From NCBI GenBank assembly GCA_050946555.1, contig JBMNVA010000010.1, positions 5,825 through 69,824 on the forward strand: DNA of 64,000 nt. The letters run 5' to 3'. Source of the stretch: Anaerovoracaceae bacterium. GTDB taxonomy: Bacteria; Bacillota; Clostridia; Peptostreptococcales; Anaerovoracaceae. The notes below the pieces were generated by a model. It did no database searches. It was given only the letters and a program-made list of their open reading frames with translations, and had not been told where the DNA came from. Below are positions 4,432-62,256 of the stretch, one piece after another. The position numbers were made by a program, and so were the translations under genes. How positions within the stretch are numbered: the first letter of the stretch is position 1; each line of letters begins with the position of its first letter.

Positions 4432-6046
4432 TTAACCGCTCGTGCTGTAAGAGTTGACCACTATGAAACTGTAATTGCCTCCTTCAGTGGTCGCTTGTGG
4501 GTATAGATCAAAACGATAAAATTTTATATTATCACCTTCCTCCGTTAACGTATAAATGATCTCATTGCCTTGACTATCATATTTCGGAACATCTGTAATA
4601 TCACCCTCCCAGTTGACATCAGCCGAAAGAGTCACTGTTTTATCTGTTAAATTGCCACTCTCATACTCTTTAAGTCGAATGGTTACCGAAGGCTCAAATC
4701 CCTGCGACCATTGTTTTTCAACGTGCACTTTTACTGTCTCAATATACTTCACCGTGAATCCACTGGAAGCATCTCCACTTACATCACCCTCAGTATAGCC
4801 ATCGACCGTATCTGCCGTGAGCGTATAAGTGATCGGATTTCCACTACTGTCTGTCTGATTAAGATCAGTAAAGGTACCGGTCCAGCCAGTTTCCGTTGTA
4901 AACGTTTTGCTATCGACTTCTGTTCCGTTCGCAAGGAGATGCACGGTAGCAGAGCTTCCGGCCGTTTGAATCCAATTAATGGTTACCGGGATGCTGATCG
5001 TCGCTTTCGTATTTGTCACCGTAAAGCCGCTGCTCGCATTGCCTGTTACTTCACTGGTATATCCGTCAACAGCATCTTCCGTCAGAGTATAGCTGATTTC
5101 ATTTCCGCTGCTGTCGTACTTATCAAGACCTGTGAACGTATATGTCCAGTCATTATCCGCGGTAAGCGCTGCGTTCGAAACCTCTGAGCCATTCGCAAGG
5201 AGATGCACGGTAGCCGAATCACCTTCACCGCCGACCCATTTCTTCGTCACCGGGATACTGATCGTCTCCTTCGTGTTCGTCACCGTAAAGCCGCTCTCAG
5301 CATCACCCGTGATGCTGGACGTGTACCCGGTTACAGAATCTTCGGTGAGTGTGTAGCTGATCTCTCCGTCGCTGTCTGCCTGATCCAGATCTTCGAAAGT
5401 ATAGGACCAGTCATTATCCGCGGTAAGCGTTGCGTCCGCGACCTCTGTCCCATTCGCAAGAAGATGAACCGTCGCAGAACTCCCGGTACCGCCGGACCAC
5501 ACCTTCGTGACCGGGATGCTGATCTTCTTCGTATTCGTTACCGTGAAGCCGCTCTCAGCGTCACCGGTAATATCAGATTCATAACCGTCGATCGCGTCTT
5601 CCGTCAGCGTATAAGAGATCTCATTTCCGTCGCTGGCCGCCTGATCCAGATCGGTGAAAGTATAGGACCAGCCATCGTCCGAGGTAAGCGTTTTGCTCGC
5701 GACCTCGGTTCCGTTCGCAAGGAGATGCACGGTCGCTTCCGTTCCTTCATCGCCGACCCATTTCTTCGTCACCGGGATGCTGATCTTCTTCGTATTTGTC
5801 ACCGTGAAGCCGCTCTCAGCGTCGCCTGTGATATCGGATTCATAACCGTCGATCGCGTCTTCCTTCAGCGTGTACTTGATCGTCTTCCCGTTCGAATCCG
5901 TCTTACGGAGGCCGGTAAACGTATAGGACCAGTCGTTGTCCGAAGTCAGCGTTGCGCTTTTTGTCTCATCACCGTTGGCATAAAGATGAACAGTAGCCGA
6001 CGTACCGGCATCGCCGATCCATACCTTGTCGACGTTGATAGAGATC
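4432..6046 (-). repeat. six tandem in-frame Cna-B-like coding repeats (~261 nt each)
   Basis: Directly visible as six successive peptide repeats in the C-terminal half of the 1065-aa ORF. The last copy is the most diverged. Confidence 0.85.
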
Positions 6047-7629
6047 TTTTCCGCGGCCGTAGTATCCGCCGGCACATTCTTCTCTTCCTTTGTTGGAGTA
6101 CCGAAGCTCAGGTAGTGGTTGCTGCCGACACCGCCGCCGTACGTGGCACGGTTGTTCGTGATCCTGACCGTCGCGGAACTCGTCGCCTTGGTCTCCGCTT
6201 TTGCTGAAGGTTTGTTGACGACCGCGCTCGCCTGGAGCAGGCTTGCGGACTCTTTGGTATCCGATGTCGTGTAACGGCTGCTGCTGCTCGACGTCGTCTG
6301 CGTTGATGCGCCGCCGTCCTGATACCAGGAGTTGTTTCCGCCGCCAAGCATCGTGCCGGTTACCGTGACGCCAGTATCCCCGCTTCTCGGTGATACATAA
6401 AGGTCGTCGCCGGCCCCGTCCGTTCCTCTTTTTGTCGTCGTATTGTCAAAGACAGCGATGCCGTCTGTCTTCGCTTCGCTGAACATATCGGCTTCGCCGT
6501 TCGGGCAGAACCAGAGGCCGCCGCCGAGGCTTTCCGCCTCATTGTCGGATACGAGTGTGTTTTTGAAAGAAGCGCCGCCGTAGGCTTTGCCGCTGTCGAG
6601 GAATACGCCGCCGCCTTTGTCGTCAGAGGTGTTCCCGGCGATCCTGCCCGCGGTCAGCACAGCCTTTGTATAGACGTTGCTGAAGATGCCACCGCCGTGC
6701 GTCTCGTTTTTGAGCGACGCCGCGGCTCCTTTGTCGGCACCGGTCCGGAACGCGTTGTTATTCGTGATGCTGCCGCCGCCGAGATAAAGCGAGCTGATCG
6801 CATCGCTGTCAGAAGAATACACGGCGATGGCCCCGCCGTTCCCGGAGCAGACCGTGCTGTCCGCGTCCTTCGCGTTCGCGTTATGAGACCCTGCCGTATT
6901 GTCCGAGATCTCGCCTCCGTTGACCGTGACCGATGCGCCTTCTGTGACCGCGATCGCTCCTCCGAGCGCGTTCGCGGAGACCGTCGAGTCTTCCAGAACT
7001 GCCGCCGAAGACACGACCTGGTTCCCGCTGATCGTACCGTCATTGATGATGACGGAGGCGTTTTTTCCTTCCGCGCGCAGCGCGCCGCCAAATGCGATCC
7101 CCTTTGTCGTCGAATTGCTGTTGCCGGAGATCGTTCCGTCGTTCATGGTGAACGTCCCGTCCACGATACTGATCGCAGGAACGCCGCCTTTGCCGTATTT
7201 GAAACTCGCGAAGCCGGCGCCGGCAGAGGTGCTTTCGAAGTCCTCGACCGAGCCGTCGTTCATGACCATGTCACCGTAAACAGAAAACACCGGCGTCGAA
7301 CGTTCCTTTTTGTCGCTCGCGAGGTTCACATTTTCCAGCACAAGAACGGCGCCCTTCTCGACGATAAAACCGCCTTTTCCGGTCACCGTTACATCTGCGT
7401 CATGATCCTCCTGATCCGACTTGACGATAAGATACGTTCCTTCCGGTACATCCACCATACTGTCCAGTGTGTCTCCATCATGCAGGATGAAGGTTTTCTG
7501 CTGGGCGGGGTCGCTCGCTGATCCGAATTGCAGCAGCAGTCCGATACCGATGGCAGCAGCAAGGACAGCCGCTCCCGCCAGAATGGCGAAGAGGCGCCTG
7601 GAATGCCTCTGGTTAGATATCGCTCTCAT
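4432..7629 (-). CDS. large secreted/surface protein with an N-terminal Pmp-like beta-helix region and six Cna-B-type repeats
   Basis: 1065 aa. N-terminal signal/anchor (RRLFAILAGAAVLAAAIGIGLLL). Repeated GGAI/GGGI/GGGV...N motifs (ALGGAIAV, GNGGAIAV, HGGGIF, KGGGVF, LGGGLW). These are followed by six ~87-aa repeats (ISIPVTKKWVGDEG..ATVHLLANGTEV...DGYES.ITGDAESGFTVTNTKK). No LPXTG and no C-terminal TM segment. Confidence 0.85.
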   Translation of the reverse strand: MRAISNQRHSRRLFAILAGAAVLAAAIGIGLLLQFGSASDPAQQKTFILHDGDTLDSMVDVPEGTYLIVKSDQEDHDADVTVTGKGGFIVEKGAVLVLENVNLASDKKERSTPVFSVYGDMVMNDGSVEDFESTSAGAGFASFKYGKGGVPAISIVDGTFTMNDGTISGNSNSTTKGIAFGGALRAEGKNASVIINDGTISGNQVVSSAAVLEDSTVSANALGGAIAVTEGASVTVNGGEISDNTAGSHNANAKDADSTVCSGNGGAIAVYSSDSDAISSLYLGGGSITNNNAFRTGADKGAAASLKNETHGGGIFSNVYTKAVLTAGRIAGNTSDDKGGGVFLDSGKAYGGASFKNTLVSDNEAESLGGGLWFCPNGEADMFSEAKTDGIAVFDNTTTKRGTDGAGDDLYVSPRSGDTGVTVTGTMLGGGNNSWYQDGGASTQTTSSSSSRYTTSDTKESASLLQASAVVNKPSAKAETKATSSATVRITNNRATYGGGVGSNHYLSFGTPTKEEKNVPADTTAAEKISINVDKVWIGDAGTSATVHLYANGDETKSATLTSDNDWSYTFTGLRKTDSNGKTIKYTLKEDAIDGYESDITGDAESGFTVTNTKKISIPVTKKWVGDEGTEATVHLLANGTEVASKTLTSDDGWSYTFTDLDQAASDGNEISYTLTEDAIDGYESDITGDAESGFTVTNTKKISIPVTKVWSGGTGSSATVHLLANGTEVADATLTADNDWSYTFEDLDQADSDGEISYTLTEDSVTGYTSSITGDAESGFTVTNTKETISIPVTKKWVGGEGDSATVHLLANGSEVSNAALTADNDWTYTFTGLDKYDSSGNEISYTLTEDAVDGYTSEVTGNASSGFTVTNTKATISIPVTINWIQTAGSSATVHLLANGTEVDSKTFTTETGWTGTFTDLNQTDSSGNPITYTLTADTVDGYTEGDVSGDASSGFTVKYIETVKVHVEKQWSQGFEPSVTIRLKEYESGNLTDKTVTLSADVNWEGDITDVPKYDSQGNEIIYTLTEEGDNIKFYRFDLYPQATTEGGNYSFIVVNSYSTSG

Positions 7630-7757: not shown

Positions 7758-8118
7758 TGGTGGAAGTGGCGGGAGTCGAACCCGCGTCCGAAAATATTTC
7801 CATATCACTTTCTCCGAGCGCAGCTGATGGTTTAAGCTTCGCGTTCCCGGGCGTCCATCAGCAGACTCCCGGTTCGGCTATTCCGCATTGGTCCTCAGCC
7901 GGTCCGGAAACCCCGGCTGAGTTTTCCTGCATGATCGATGCCAGGATTCCGGCCTGCAGGTGAACCGGAGCTGACACGCAAAGTCGCTGAACTAAGCAGC
8001 GAGTGCGAGATTATTATCGTTTTTAGCGTTTATATTTAAACGGCCCCTTTTAACGCAGACTGGGCACTGCGGCTCGCTTATGCTACTTCTATATCCCCGT
8101 CGAAACCTTTACACCCCC
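7758..8118 (-). ncRNA. ssrA: tmRNA (SsrA)
   Basis: The minus strand begins GGGGGTGTAAAGGTTTCGACGGGGAT and ends GGACGCGGGTTCGACTCCCGCCACTTCCACCA. The tag frame GCT AAA AAC GAT AAT AAT CTC GCA CTC GCT GCT TAG encodes AKNDNNLALAA* (8027..7992). smpB is adjacent. Confidence 0.95.
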
Positions 8119-24831: not shown

Positions 24832-26259
24832 ATGACAGAGAGCAAATCTACGACAAAAGGCAGCTTCGGCTCCACCTTCGGTTTCATCATGGCTTCCGTC
24901 GGCTCGGCCGTCGGACTCGGGAACATCTGGGGCTTCCCGTATAAAGCCGGCGCGAACGGCGGGTTCGCATTTCTCATCGTGTATCTCGTGCTCGCCCTCC
25001 TCGTCGGCTACCCGCTGATGCTGAGCGAAGCGAGTCTCGGGCGCAAGACCCGGAAAGCCGCGATCGAGGCGCACCGGGAGTGCAACCCGAAGTTCACGAT
25101 CAACGGCTTTTTCGAGTGTGCGGTTCCGTTCTTCATGCTCTGCTTCTATATCGTCCTCGGCGGGATCGTCATGCGCTACATGGTCGCGAACTTCGGCGAC
25201 ATCTTTCACGCCGGCTTCGGCGTCGGCGACACCGACAGCGAGACGTTCTTCGGGAACTTCATCTCCCACACCGGGGCGTCTGAGATCTATATGCTCGTGT
25301 TCCTGTTCCTCACATCCTTTATCGTCGCGCGCGGGATCAAAAACGGGATCGAACGCTTCAACAACATCGCGATGCCGCTGCTGTTCTTCATGCTGATCGC
25401 GATCGTCATCCGCTGCTGCACGCTGGACGGCGCGGGCGCCGGGCTGGCGTTCCTGTTCAAGCCGGATTTCTCGGTGTTCCGCGGCACGGGATGGATCCGC
25501 GTCATCGCGGTCGCGGGGAGCCAGATGTTCTTCTCGCTCTCTCTCGCGTCCGGCGCGATCATCGCGTACGGTTCGTACATGCGGAAAGAAGACAATATCG
25601 AAAAAAGCTGCATCATCATTCCGGCGATGGATACGGTCGCGGCGCTGCTCGCCGGCATGGCGGTCCTCCCGGCGGTCTTCGCGGCGGGACTCGAGCCGTC
25701 CGGCGGCCCGGGGCTCCTTTTTGTCTCTCTCCAGACGGTGTTTGATTCGATGGGATCGCTCGGACCGTTCTTCGGATTCTTCTTCTATCTGCTCGTCTTC
25801 CTGGCGGCGCTCTCCTCCTCCATCGCGATGATGGAAGGCGGGAACTCCGCTCTGATCGACGCGCTGGAACGCCGCGGGCACAAAAACGCGCGCCTCCAGG
25901 GCACGCTGATCATCACCGTGACGACATTCATCGGCGCGTCGCTCGTGGCGCTGGATCAGCTCGGCGGCTCCGGCATGTGGAAGCCGTTCGGACTCGGCAG
26001 CTGGCTCGACGTGTTCGACATGGTTTCGGAAGGCATCCTGATGCCGCTCGGCGGTCTGCTGATGGCGATCATGCTCGGCTGGACGCGCTACGGCTGGCTC
26101 GACAGCGAGATCGAGCTGAGTTCGCCGTACCGGACAAAAGGTTTCGTCAACACCTGCATGAAGTGGATCGTGCCAGTCTTCATGGCGTTTATCGTGTTCG
26201 TTCAGGTCAGCTCCTTCTTCTTCTCCGGGACCGACTGGTACAAGGCGCTGATCGGCTGA
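24832..26259 (+). CDS. sodium-dependent transporter, neurotransmitter:sodium symporter (SNF/NSS) family
   Basis: FGFIMASVGSAVGLGNIWGFPYKAGANGG is the hallmark NSS N-terminal motif. Polytopic, 475 aa. Confidence 0.92.
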   Translation: MTESKSTTKGSFGSTFGFIMASVGSAVGLGNIWGFPYKAGANGGFAFLIVYLVLALLVGYPLMLSEASLGRKTRKAAIEAHRECNPKFTINGFFECAVPFFMLCFYIVLGGIVMRYMVANFGDIFHAGFGVGDTDSETFFGNFISHTGASEIYMLVFLFLTSFIVARGIKNGIERFNNIAMPLLFFMLIAIVIRCCTLDGAGAGLAFLFKPDFSVFRGTGWIRVIAVAGSQMFFSLSLASGAIIAYGSYMRKEDNIEKSCIIIPAMDTVAALLAGMAVLPAVFAAGLEPSGGPGLLFVSLQTVFDSMGSLGPFFGFFFYLLVFLAALSSSIAMMEGGNSALIDALERRGHKNARLQGTLIITVTTFIGASLVALDQLGGSGMWKPFGLGSWLDVFDMVSEGILMPLGGLLMAIMLGWTRYGWLDSEIELSSPYRTKGFVNTCMKWIVPVFMAFIVFVQVSSFFFSGTDWYKALIG

Positions 26260-26307: not shown

Positions 26308-26345
26308 AGAAAAAAGAATCAGGGCAGGCGACGAACCCTGCCCTG
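26308..26345 (-). terminator. intrinsic terminator T2 (minus strand); also the hairpin just 3' of the NSS gene
   Basis: Minus strand reads cagggcagg-gttcgtcg-cctgccctg followed by attcttttttctcc. On the plus strand the same hairpin has no T-tract. Confidence 0.7.
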
Positions 26346-26400
26346 ACGAAAAAAGAATGAAAAGCAATTGAGGTCCAAACCACAGTTGAAGACGTTCGGA

Positions 26401-26435
26401 AAATACAAAAAGGACTGTGGCTCAGCCCACAGCCC
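26401..26435 (-). terminator. intrinsic terminator T1 (expression platform of the cobalamin riboswitch)
   Basis: Minus strand reads gggctgtgg-gctgag-ccacagtcc followed by tttttgtattt. Confidence 0.7.
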
Positions 26436-26660
26436 GTATTCGCTGATGTTTCGCGCCTTGCCGGTTCATCCGCCAGCTCGCTCTCCCATGCAGTTATCCT
26501 GGCTTACGGATCATCGCAGGTCTCTCTCTCCTTCCCAGCCTTGCAGCCAGTGGATTCTCCAGTTATGAGAGCCCGCTCCCCGATTACAGTGGCGGTACCG
26601 CGCAAGATTCTAACTTGCTTCCCTCTTAGCTCCCTTTCGGGAGAACATGGAACACACATT
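26436..26660 (-). promoter_or_regulatory. cobalamin (B12) riboswitch aptamer
   Basis: The minus strand contains AGAGGGAAGCAAGTTAGAATCTTGCGCGGTACCGCCACTGTAATCGGGGAGC (conserved core). About 90 nt later it contains GTAAGCCAGGATAACTGCATGG (B12 box). Both are in the canonical 5'-to-3' order. Confidence 0.8.
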
Positions 26661-26674
26661 TCAATTGCACATAT

Positions 26675-26702
26675 ATTCTATCATTTATTGCCCGTCCGTC
26701 AA
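26675..26702 (-). promoter_or_regulatory. sigma-A type promoter driving the riboswitch RNA
   Basis: Minus strand has TTGACG (26702-26697), a 16-nt spacer, then the extended -10 TGaTAGAAT (-10 hexamer at 26680-26675). Confidence 0.55.
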
Positions 26703-26761: not shown

Positions 26762-26797
26762 CAAAAACAGGAAAAAGCAGCCGCTGGTCCCGGCTGC
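26762..26797 (-). terminator. intrinsic terminator after the 27-codon ORF
   Basis: Minus strand reads gcagccg-ggaccag-cggctgc followed by tttttcctgttttt. Confidence 0.7.
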
Positions 26798-26833
26798 CGC
26801 TTTCCCTTATTCGTCCTTATTCGTTGTTATTAC

Positions 26834-26917
26834 TTATTTTTCTGCTACTTTGTTCACGAGAAACGAAAAGCCCCAGCAAGCAACAAATGCGACGCACACA
26901 ACTACTGTAGAAACCAT
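26834..26917 (-). CDS. candidate small hydrophobic peptide (27 aa)
   Basis: ATG at 26917 preceded by GGAAAGGAG (7-nt spacer). It translates to MVSTVVVCVAFVACWGFSFLVNKVAEK*. It has its own terminator downstream and falls below the ORF-track length cutoff. Confidence 0.35.
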   Translation of the reverse strand: MVSTVVVCVAFVACWGFSFLVNKVAEK

Positions 26918-27088: not shown

Positions 27089-27373
27089 TTAATCGCGGTT
27101 CTTTTTTACGATCTCGGCCAGCTCCCCGAACTTGTCCAGGACCTTGTCGTAATTTCCGCGAACGTGCGGGAACATGCAGTTGCTGCAGTCCTTGAACCCG
27201 TTCTCCAGAAAGCGGTAATTCCCGCCGCATTTATCGCCCAGCGCGAACAGCGGGCAGTAACAGAACAGGCAGTTGAAATTCTCCGGATCGTTCGTCTGAT
27301 GGCATGGGAAGAACTCGCATTCCTTATGCTGGAAAAAAGCAAACTTTCTGTTGTCCTGATTCATATCACTCAT
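27089..27373 (-). CDS. cysteine-rich small domain protein (probable metal-binding)
   Basis: 94 aa with 11 Cys in ECEFFPCH...FNCLFCYCPLF...KCGG...DCSNCMFPH. AAGGAG RBS 6 nt upstream. I recall this as the 'cysteine-rich small domain' family, but that needs a database check. Confidence 0.75.
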   Translation of the reverse strand: MSDMNQDNRKFAFFQHKECEFFPCHQTNDPENFNCLFCYCPLFALGDKCGGNYRFLENGFKDCSNCMFPHVRGNYDKVLDKFGELAEIVKKNRD

Positions 27374-27393
27374 TGCGTGCTCCTTCTTTTGAC

Positions 27394-27424
27394 AAAAAGA
27401 GCCCTGCGCCTCAACGCAGAGCTC
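27394..27424 (-). terminator. intrinsic terminator after rplQ
   Basis: Minus strand reads gagctctgcg-ttgagg-cgcagggctc followed by ttttt. Confidence 0.7.
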
Positions 27425-27447
27425 CTTTGCTGCAAATTATCCAGTGC

Positions 27448-53872: not shown

Positions 53873-53976
53873 CAGCCTCCAGCCCCTTTCAGCGCGACCG
53901 GAGATGACTGATGAAAAGATGTCCGCACGGACCCGGCAGGGAGCCATCATTCCAGTTATTAGTGAGGAGGAAAACT

Positions 53977-55077
53977 ATGGCAGAAGAAAAACTGAAGAGA
54001 ACGACTTTATATGACACGCATATAAAGTACGGCGGAAAAATGGTCCCGTTTGCCGGATGGGAAATGCCGGTCCAGTACAAAGCGGGCGTCGTAAAGGAGC
54101 ATATGGCGGTCCGGGAAAAATGCGGACTGTTCGACGTTTCCCACATGGGTGAAGTCTTCCTGAAAGGGCCGGATTCGACAAAGAACCTGAACTGGCTCCT
54201 GACGAACGACTACACCGATCTGAAGGCGGGACAGGCTCGCTACAGCCTGATGTGCAACGAGCACGGCGGTGTCGTCGATGACCTGATCGTGTACAAGCAC
54301 GATGACGAGTTCTTCATGATCGTCGTGAACGCGGCGAACCGCGAGAAGGACTTCAAGTGGATGTGCGATCACAAGATCGGGAACGCTGAATTCACGGACG
54401 TCTCGGACGACTGGGGACAGCTCGCACTGCAGGGCCCGAAAGCGAAGGAAGTCCTGAAGAAGCTCGTACCGGCGGACATGATCCCGGCGGGATACTATGA
54501 GGTCAACTGGGACGCGGAGCTGGACGGCGTGAAGTGCATCATCTCCACGACCGGATACACCGGCGAGGACGGCGTCGAGATCTACATGCCGGCGGCGGAA
54601 GCTCCGAAATTCTGGGAAGACATCATCCAGGCCGGCCAGGAAGAAGGCATCCTCCCGTGCGGACTCGGCGCGCGCGATACCCTGCGTCTGGAAGCCGGCA
54701 TGCCTCTGTACGGCCATGAGATGACCGACGATATCACTCCGAAAGAAGCGCTGATGTCCATGTTCGTCAAAATGGACAAGGACGACTTTATCGGCAAAGC
54801 CGCGATCGAAGCCGGCACCCCGCCGAAGAGGAAAAAGGTCGGCCTGGAAGTCGTCGGCCGCGGGATCATCCGCGAAGAGATGGACGTCTATCGGAACGGC
54901 AAAAAGATCGGCGTGACCCTGTCCGGAACGAAGTGCCCGTACATCAACAAGGCGGTCGCGACCGCACTGATCGACGCGGATCAGCGTGAACTCGGCGAGG
55001 AAGTCGAAGTCGATGTCCGCGGACGCATGGTCAAGGCGAAGATGGTCAAATCACAGTTCTACAAGAGAGAACAATAG
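53977..55077 (+). CDS. gcvT: glycine cleavage system aminomethyltransferase GcvT
   Basis: Start at MAEEKLKRTTLYDTHIKYGGKMVPFAGWEMPVQY (GAGGAGG RBS). The track start at 53911 lies inside the riboswitch 3' flank. Confidence 0.95.
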   Translation: MAEEKLKRTTLYDTHIKYGGKMVPFAGWEMPVQYKAGVVKEHMAVREKCGLFDVSHMGEVFLKGPDSTKNLNWLLTNDYTDLKAGQARYSLMCNEHGGVVDDLIVYKHDDEFFMIVVNAANREKDFKWMCDHKIGNAEFTDVSDDWGQLALQGPKAKEVLKKLVPADMIPAGYYEVNWDAELDGVKCIISTTGYTGEDGVEIYMPAAEAPKFWEDIIQAGQEEGILPCGLGARDTLRLEAGMPLYGHEMTDDITPKEALMSMFVKMDKDDFIGKAAIEAGTPPKRKKVGLEVVGRGIIREEMDVYRNGKKIGVTLSGTKCPYINKAVATALIDADQRELGEEVEVDVRGRMVKAKMVKSQFYKREQ

Positions 55078-62182: not shown

Positions 62183-62256
62183 TGGAGCGGGCGAAGGGAA
62201 TCGAACCCTCGATTCGAGCTTGGGAAGCTCGTGTTTTACCATTAAACTACGCCCGC
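62183..62256 (-). tRNA. tRNA-Gly (anticodon CCC), CCA encoded
   Basis: The minus strand is GCGGGCGTAGTTTAATGGTAAAACACGAGCTTCCCAAGCTCGAATCGAGGGTTCGATTCCCTTCGCCCGCTCCA. It folds as a cloverleaf: acceptor GCGGGCG/CGCCCGC, anticodon stem CGAGC/GCTCG, loop TTCCCAA. Confidence 0.95.

Follow-up and report, generated by a model that had tools for sequence, protein, structure and literature searches.

A cobalamin riboswitch with two terminators and no gene behind it: a candidate B12-sensing regulatory RNA in Anaerovoracaceae-like Clostridia

We analyzed a 64-kb stretch of DNA from an Anaerovoracaceae bacterium (the window; contig JBMNVA010000010.1), in which a cobalamin (vitamin B12) riboswitch is located on the minus strand with no gene behind it. 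In order of transcription, the unit comprises a predicted sigma-70-type promoter, the riboswitch aptamer, an intrinsic terminator (T1), a short spacer region and a second terminator (T2) (Table 1). Upstream on the same strand are rpsM, rpsK, rpsD, rpoA and rplQ, followed by a gene for a 94-amino-acid (aa) Cys-rich protein of the family PF04071 (27089-27373; zf-like); downstream, the gene of a Na+ symporter converges on the unit. An initial annotation had described the promoter, aptamer, T1, T2 and convergent transporter from the DNA letters, and all are present, the transporter gene on the plus strand and the other elements on the minus strand. No open reading frame (ORF) follows the riboswitch. 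Between the aptamer and T2 the only ATG-initiated frames are those of 7 and 15 codons, as had been noted. A 29-codon ATG frame begins just past T2, but a second haplotype of the species has ACG in place of this ATG. A hidden small ORF was rejected, since this start codon is lost in the second haplotype and no frame between T1 and T2 is common to the three species that carry the unit (see below). On the plus strand the sequence at T2 reads without a T-run, and T2 is thus not the terminator of the transporter gene. Promoter-like sites in this region numbered 3 compared to 0.9 in shuffled sequences, and terminator-like sites 5 compared to 2.0. The recurrence of promoter, T1 and T2 in two other species is a stronger argument against chance than these counts.

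Table 1. Features of the window unit and their conservation among the three species carrying it
Feature	Position	Strand	Description	Conservation
Unit (promoter, aptamer, T1, spacer, T2)	26702-26308	minus	in the 64-kb window	
DNA upstream of -35				37% identical, window vs L168
Sigma-70-type promoter (predicted)	TTGACG 26702-26697; 16-nt spacer; TGaTAGAAT 26683-26675	minus	10/12 consensus matches, TG extension	
5' leader GUGCAAUUGAAAU	26658..26670	minus		11/13 positions invariant, three species
Cobalamin riboswitch aptamer, RF00174	26472..26665	minus	full model, 96.7 bits	54% invariant, three species
Hairpin GCUGG-CGGAUGAA-CCGGC	26460..26477	minus	between aptamer and T1; putative P13/L13	
Putative switching sequence CAGCGAAUACGGGCUGUGG	26427..26445	minus	flank plus T1 5' arm	invariant in seven platforms
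Terminator T1	26400..26435	minus	9-bp stem, 6-nt loop, then UUUUUGUAUUUU; stem-loop DNA (26435-26412) GGGCTGTGG-GCTGAG-CCACAGTCC, then TTTTTGTATTTT	stem-loop 20/24, U-tract 9/12 invariant, three species
Variable spacer	26371..26399	minus		23% of columns invariant, three species
Linker CAAUUGCUUUUCAUUCUUUUUUC	26348..26370	minus		23/23 positions invariant, three species
Terminator T2	26308..26346	minus	10-bp GC-rich stem, 8-nt loop with CGUC, then UUCUUUUUUCU; stem-loop DNA (26346-26319) TCAGGGCAGG-GTTCGTCG-CCTGCCCTGA, then TTCTTTTTTCT	stem-loop 55% invariant, three species
Convergent transporter ORF, PF00209 (SNF), Na+ symporter	24832-26259	plus	Pfam match; stop codon 50 nt past T2	

The same unit, consisting of promoter, aptamer, T1, spacer and T2 without an ORF, was found in two other uncultured Anaerovoracaceae-like species, represented by the loci L168/L169 and L181-L183. 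The layout recognized in the initial annotation is therefore real and is kept in three species. In L168/L169 the gene order is L17 (rplQ), zf-like, a convergent Na_Ca_ex (divergent from the unit), unit and pcrA. The zf-like and L17 proteins of L168 are 72% and 95% identical to those of the window, and the promoter reads TTGACA-17-TAAAAT. In L181-L183, L17 and zf-like are followed by two enzyme genes, the unit and pcrA, with a beta-eliminating lyase gene adjoining the unit; here the zf-like and L17 proteins are 62% and 90% identical to those of the window (L181), and the promoter reads TTGACG-17-TACAAT. The orthologous promoters lie at the equivalent place, though the DNA 5' of the -35 element has diverged (Table 1). 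Downstream, the convergent SNF transporter gene of the window contrasts with a co-directional pcrA in L168 and L181; pcrA is absent from the window. An identical TATGCTATAAT is present past T2, ahead of pcrA, in both L168 and L181 and is consistent with the -10 element of a separate pcrA promoter.

Four-fold degenerate sites in five shared genes are 48%, 49% and 37% identical in the pairwise comparisons of the three genomes. Conservation along the unit is uneven, ranging from the variable spacer to a linker without a single change (Table 1), and that of linker, T1 stem-loop and 5' leader greatly exceeds the neutral level given by the four-fold sites. In L168 and L181 the T2 arms (UGAGGCAGG/CCUGCCUCA) still pair, although compared to the window a C-G pair is flipped to G-C and one pair is deleted; the U-tract is kept as well. 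The sequence past T2 is not conserved. That the unit is kept next to differing downstream neighbors in three species argues for a maintained non-coding RNA rather than a decaying remnant. An unselected remnant would not be expected to retain a promoter, an aptamer, two terminators and a perfect 23-mer while the spacer and flanks randomise. Seven contigs from this species match the window at 98% identity or more and added little information.

Covariance-model searching, proposed as a check in the initial annotation, matched the aptamer to RF00174 at 26665-26472 (-) with 96.7 bits, well above the gathering score of 31.5 bits (E = 7e-23, model positions 1-189 of 189). The orthologous aptamers scored 105.1 bits (L168) and 116.9 bits (L181). 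Both the GCCACUG junction and the B12 box (AGCCAGGA..CUGC) of the core are recognized in the RF00174 alignment. When the whole RNAs of the three species were folded jointly with RNAalifold, compensatory changes were found in 21 of 92 predicted pairs, most of them within the aptamer. The aptamer of the unit is a bona fide RF00174 cobalamin riboswitch with predicted ligand binding. It has a P6 extension typical of adenosylcobalamin (AdoCbl) class I and, judging by the fold, probably belongs to that class.

A hairpin between aptamer and T1 (26460..26477) is probably P13/L13 of the expression platform. It has a conserved loop, CGG(A)UGAA, on covarying stems (ACUGG/CCGGU in L168, CCGG/CCGG in L181, and CGUGU/ACACG in the loci L156, L099 and L090). 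The sequence CAGCGAAWACGGGCUGYGG is common to all seven homologous platforms, of stand-alone and cis-acting types, and can fold into a small CAGC/GCUG hairpin in competition with T1. An invariant block of 16-19 nucleotides (nt) overlapping the T1 5' arm in seven platforms is what would be expected of a switching sequence. T1 is presumed to be the B12-controlled terminator, ending a short isoform of ~265 nt, and the finding that homologous leaders precede real genes in L090, L099, L156 and L158 supports its predicted role as a working riboswitch terminator. T2 is predicted to form the 3' end of a long isoform of ~360 nt.

For the ~55 nt between T1 and T2, a role as trans-acting seed or protein-binding module had been suggested. 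The segment is conserved only in part: its 5' portion is variable, and its last 23 nt, the linker, are invariant. The spacer contains a second CUGUGG (26385-26380), which can pair with the T1 3' arm and is located 5-9 nt ahead of the linker in all three species; a local spacer hairpin is predicted in the window and L168, with differing stem sequences. The leader sequence GCAAUUG (26668-26662) is complementary to CAAUUGC at the start of the linker (26370-26364), and the two are paired in the RNAalifold structure of the three species. All seven pairs are invariant and thus carry no covariation information. The helix also appears in the minimum free energy folds of two of the three single sequences (window and L181), and in the centroid structure the linker pairs with the L13 loop. 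The remaining 16-nt, U/C-rich part of the linker (UUUUCAUUCUUUUUUC) is mostly unpaired in single-sequence folds (P = 0.94, 0.58 and 0.65). The linker is our candidate for the effector module of the long isoform. An exact scan of viral contigs with the linker and a plasmid BLAST search with the region gave no match. An Rfam scan of the extension detected no other family above threshold, the sole sub-threshold match being to the gltS RNA motif on the opposite strand (RF02982, 26266-26364 (+); 32.7 bits compared to a gathering score of 47.5, E = 0.002 in a short search). The matched stretch follows the stop codon of the Na+ symporter gene closely, on the same strand as that gene, and includes part of the T2 complement. 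We attribute the match to chance, as a probable explanation, because the stretch is not conserved in L168 or L181.

The origin of the unit was traced in 80 metagenome loci fetched via zf-like homologues (~60% identical). The window aptamer was matched in 47 of these loci (nhmmer, E < 1e-6), nearly always upstream of the zf-like gene, and a cobalamin riboswitch was confirmed with Rfam in 13 of 20 loci scanned. L090, L099, L156 and L158 have the expression platform in common with the window, CAGCGAAWACGGGCUGYGG and T1 being followed by the CUUUUCAUCC core and a GC-rich hairpin. The leaders of L099, L156 and L158 run through a further terminator into a gene for a 95-aa protein, with a separately promoted zf-like gene next. 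In L090 the zf-like gene comes next, behind a second promoter copy, and in L104 and L098 the riboswitch is located downstream of the zf-like gene and directly ahead of the 95-aa gene. These cis-acting leaders (L090, L099, L104, L156, L158) share with the window unit a homologous aptamer, the invariant block with T1, the linker core CUUUUCAUYC and the GC-rich hairpin right after it. They differ in running on into genes, whereas in the window the hairpin has acquired a U-tract, making it T2, with no coding sequence behind it. Only the stand-alone clade has the CAAUUG pair and the second CUGUGG. A match to the L156 leader, the 11-nt vestige GGAGAATGTGT, is still present in the window just past T2.

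More distant relatives thus carry, ahead of B12-linked ORFs, a homologous riboswitch that shares T1 and the linker core with the window unit, which indicates descent from a cis-acting leader. The stand-alone unit is accordingly a derived state: a former leader of a B12-regulated operon whose gene was lost while the RNA was kept. The hairpin after the linker gained its U-tract to become T2, and this state became fixed ahead of the divergence of the three species. Synteny in related genomes had been named in the initial annotation as a means to recognize a deletion remnant. The outcome is divided: more distant relatives do carry the riboswitch before 95-aa or zf-like ORFs, but conservation in three species argues against a mere remnant.

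The 95-aa family (92-103 aa; MN[VI]NWFKNPDNVVYAD...YECYC.YW) comprises only 72 clusters (proteins P0241-P0312) and has no match in Pfam. The few named clusters are from Aminipila, Clostridium aminobutyricum, Eubacterium and Anaerovoracaceae. In L104 (2012-2302), L156 (2562-2849) and L099 (2571-2858) the genes are located directly behind cobalamin riboswitches and adjoin zf-like, cobW-like or CbiQ genes, and the family probably represents an uncharacterised B12-related protein. No 95-aa gene was found in the DNA available for the three species with the stand-alone unit. Read as its reverse complement, the linker gives ...AAGA-ATG-AAA-AGC-AAT-TGG, to be compared with the MN[VI]NW (ATGAATGTTAATTGG) at the start of the family; pairing by hand with the start of the L104 gene matched 13 of 15 positions, and none of the 72 clusters begins with MKSNW. 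Antisense action of the linker on the start of the 95-aa gene thus finds no support here: its pairing with the start regions from other species is no better than background, and the gene is absent from the available DNA of the three species.

The stand-alone unit is most likely a B12-controlled regulatory RNA and not a leftover, to judge from its near-unchanged retention in three distantly related gut-type Clostridia. Specifically, we propose, with a probability of roughly 0.55, that it is an independently transcribed non-coding B12-sensing RNA which arose from an operon leader and whose long isoform acts in trans through the linker. Transcription would start at about 26670-26668 (-), given the distance to the -10 element. 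With AdoCbl bound, the aptamer and P13 hairpin would allow T1 to form, and the RNA would end at ~265 nt. In the absence of B12, an alternative pairing involving the invariant CAGCGAAUACGGGCUG would let polymerase pass T1, lengthening the RNA by ~95 nt to T2 (~360 nt), and T2 would insulate the downstream gene. The invariant 23-nt linker would thus be carried by the long form only. Pairing of its first 7 nt with the 5' end would leave a 16-nt U/C-rich single strand beside the T2 hairpin. A U/C-rich single strand beside a terminator hairpin is a typical 3' module of small regulatory RNAs. This strand would be the likely effector, pairing with purine-rich, AUG-containing start regions of one or more unlinked mRNAs or binding a protein, and so would adjust some B12-related function when B12 is scarce. 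Here we infer B12-dependent termination at T1, the two isoforms and action in trans from the behavior of the family and from precedent. More tentatively, and at somewhat less than even odds, the unit may represent a second independent invention of a riboswitch-gated regulatory RNA, in which an Anaerovoracaceae leader lost its genes and became trans-acting, the 23-nt module of its long isoform controlling unlinked mRNA(s) or titrating a protein. A candidate for this protein would be the zf-like protein, its gene accompanying the riboswitch lineage in many genomes.

Several points weigh against this proposal. The promoter, the two isoforms and the response to B12 are all predictions. Folding of truncated platforms gave no convincing antiterminator for T1, but only the small CAGC/GCUG hairpin, in some cases with a 4-bp pairing to the B12 box. 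The presence of the linker core in cis-acting leaders means that its role could be intramolecular, in platform folding or RNA stability, rather than that of a trans seed. No complement of the linker occurs elsewhere in the 64-kb window, and no target was found there. Duplex energies between the linker and seven 95-aa start regions from other species fell between the 7th and 80th percentiles of 591 background start regions. Moreover, the stand-alone unit is known from three species only, all metagenome-derived. It is missing at this locus in the L17 relatives L174, L177-L180 and L184-L187 (94-88% identical), which have other genes after rplQ, and searching additional relatives via L17 or the zf-like protein turned up no other copy.

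Some of these points bear on the possibility that the RNA is stand-alone and functional but that the linker acts only within it, by closing the 5' and 3' ends to stabilize the long form or by resetting the platform. Function would then lie in B12 binding or buffering, or in the act of transcription, with no trans target. The core CUUUUCAUYC shared with cis-acting leaders, the ability of the linker to pair with the 5' end and the L13 loop, and the failure to find a target in the window or among the 95-aa start regions are in line with this explanation. We nevertheless consider it unlikely, as a 7-bp helix alone would hardly account for 16 invariant nucleotides predicted to be unpaired, and an RNA serving as a B12 'sponge' would need no second isoform. 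We know of no precedent for such a sponge.

In two of the three species the unit is located 70-130 nt upstream of pcrA-ligA in the same orientation. It might therefore be a cis regulator of these genes, with two serial attenuators tuning read-through and the window copy orphaned by a recent rearrangement and not yet decayed. This is somewhat more doubtful still. All three species have a strong T2 complete with its U-tract, and the identical TATGCTATAAT past it in L168 and L181 points to a separate pcrA promoter. In addition, L174 has pcrA-ligA at the same place without a riboswitch, and in the window, where pcrA is not present, promoter, T1, linker and T2 are nonetheless intact. To our knowledge, B12 has no link to PcrA or LigA.

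A non-functional, slowly decaying remnant of a deleted operon leader might be suspected from the relatives' homologous riboswitches ahead of 95-aa and zf-like genes and from the vestige GGAGAATGTGT matching the L156 leader. We regard this as improbable: promoter, aptamer (97-117 bits), T1, all 23 linker positions and T2 are kept in three lineages with neutral sites near saturation, while the spacer and the region past T2 have diverged freely, showing that decay was possible.

The initial annotation had considered antisense control of the transporter gene. The unit does converge on the SNF gene, with the stop codon 50 nt past T2, and the RNA AspocR offers a precedent for antisense or transcription-interference regulation. 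However, two intrinsic terminators separate riboswitch and gene, the sequence past T2 is not conserved, and the orthologous units face no convergent transporter but are followed by a co-directional pcrA. Synteny was also examined in 80 reference-genome loci that contain SNF homologues; among the 17 most closely related, none had a cobalamin riboswitch near the transporter gene, indicating that the riboswitch is not tied to it. Such a role is very improbable and is not supported as the conserved one.

Finally, a decoy sequestering an ANTAR response regulator, the EutX/Rli55-like mechanism also put forward there, shares the overall layout of riboswitch, terminator, extension and terminator without an ORF, but has hardly any likelihood, since the extensions of all three species lack the paired ANNGNN hexaloop hairpins, no eut gene, microcompartment domain or ANTAR domain was found among 43 window ORFs scanned against Pfam, and the class-I P6 extension seen here contrasts with the class IIb of eut-linked cobalamin riboswitches (PMC11477304). 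The ANTAR-binding dual hairpin is defined by two hexaloops whose first position is A and whose fourth is G (PMC3369931).

Riboswitch-gated non-coding RNAs with short and long isoforms, namely Rli55, EutX and AspocR, have been described (PMC8079631). Rli55 of Listeria monocytogenes and EutX of Enterococcus faecalis resemble the window unit in having their own promoter, a 5' B12 riboswitch and no ORF, and in that a riboswitch terminator yields the short form and a second terminator ends the effector-bearing long form (PMC8079631), isoforms that are predicted for the window unit. They titrate EutV by means of an ANTAR dual-hairpin site, a motif absent in the window unit, whose candidate effector is instead an invariant 23-nt pyrimidine-rich strand. 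Rli55 and EutX are located in eut loci, the window unit where the ribosomal alpha operon region ends, beside the zf-like gene. Their aptamers are class IIb, while that of the window looks like class I by its fold, and the taxon, Anaerovoracaceae-like Clostridia, differs as well. The window unit is like Rli55/EutX in layout without the defining effector or locus features, and is not a member of that group. In AspocR of Listeria, which is antisense to pocR, a B12 riboswitch likewise chooses between a short terminated and a longer regulatory RNA (PMC8079631). AspocR extends for 1.4 kb through its target in antisense, whereas the second, strong terminator of the window unit comes before the stop codon of the convergent gene. 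The convergent arrangement of the window is not conserved.

Other riboswitch transcripts have a role beyond cis control or no gene behind them, and are comparable to the window unit in this respect. The riboswitch RNAs SreA and SreB act in trans via their terminated short form, still controlling their own downstream genes. In C. difficile, an orphan c-di-GMP-I (cyclic di-GMP) element between CD2517 and CD2517.1 is a riboswitch without a downstream gene (Table 1 of PMC11477304); no function has been assigned to this element, nor does it have a conservation analysis like that of the window unit. The layout thus has precedent. New would be a riboswitch-gated non-coding RNA with this class-I-like aptamer, candidate effector module and taxon, and with a traceable origin from a cis-acting leader.

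Riboswitches known to gate non-coding RNAs number only a handful (Rli55/EutX and AspocR), all from well-studied pathogens. The unit described here suggests a separate origin of this logic in uncultured gut-type Clostridia, involving another aptamer class and effector module. A plausible route would be that a cis leader loses its gene and an internal hairpin gains a U-tract, resulting in a stand-alone RNA. The invariant 23-nt sequence provides a concrete object for a partner search, and through the leader family B12 sensing becomes connected with two small, uncharacterised proteins, those of the 95-aa family and of PF04071.

The cis-type leaders themselves (L156 2350-2500, L099, L158 and L090) show a further feature: GGAUGGAU(C), which follows the P13-like hairpin, has a perfect complement in the (G)AUCCAUCC behind hairpin 2, and the resulting helix would enclose T1 and hairpin 2. 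L099, L156 and L158 have an additional terminator immediately before the 95-aa gene. Leader helix and extra terminator point to an undescribed multi-step attenuator. Pair counts from MAFFT alignment of hairpin 2 across both leader types were uninformative, as the stems were misaligned. In L090 the promoter-like sequence TTGATT-17-TATATT with TG occurs twice, before the riboswitch (2517-2545) and between the leader and the zf-like gene (2943-2971); the L090 riboswitch RNA may be a separate transcript too. In a common human-gut species, lysine riboswitches (L129 3446-3628, L167 4932-5130) are located a short distance downstream of the pair of riboswitch and zf-like gene.

Within the window, the zf-like gene begins ~20 nt past the intrinsic terminator of rplQ (L17) and has no recognizable promoter of its own (27089-27447, -); read-through of that terminator would accordingly be needed to express it. 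Most relatives instead have a gene of this family behind a cobalamin riboswitch. None of the 43 window ORFs scanned against Pfam is a cob or btu gene. L17 homologues of Hornefia, Aminicella and Emergencia are 88-89% identical and assign the organism to the Anaerovoracaceae. Between the zf-like gene and the riboswitch promoter lies a 27-codon ORF (MVSTVVVCVAFVACWGFSFLVNKVAEK; 26834-26917, -) with a strong AAAGGAG ribosome binding site and its own intrinsic terminator (26776-26798, -). It is hydrophobic, absent from L168 and L181, and carries one non-synonymous and one synonymous change in the second haplotype; its product resembles a small membrane peptide or a type-I toxin.

Elsewhere in the window, a glycine riboswitch (RF00504, 53686-53779 (+), 61.5 bits) precedes the gcvT aminomethyltransferase gene (53911-55077, +) in an ordinary arrangement. 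A transfer-messenger RNA gene is located at 7758-8118 (-; 176 bits) and a tRNA gene at 62186-62256 (-). A 1065-aa protein encoded at 4432-7629 (-), with six Cna_B repeats and a weak match to CBM60, is probably a surface adhesin.

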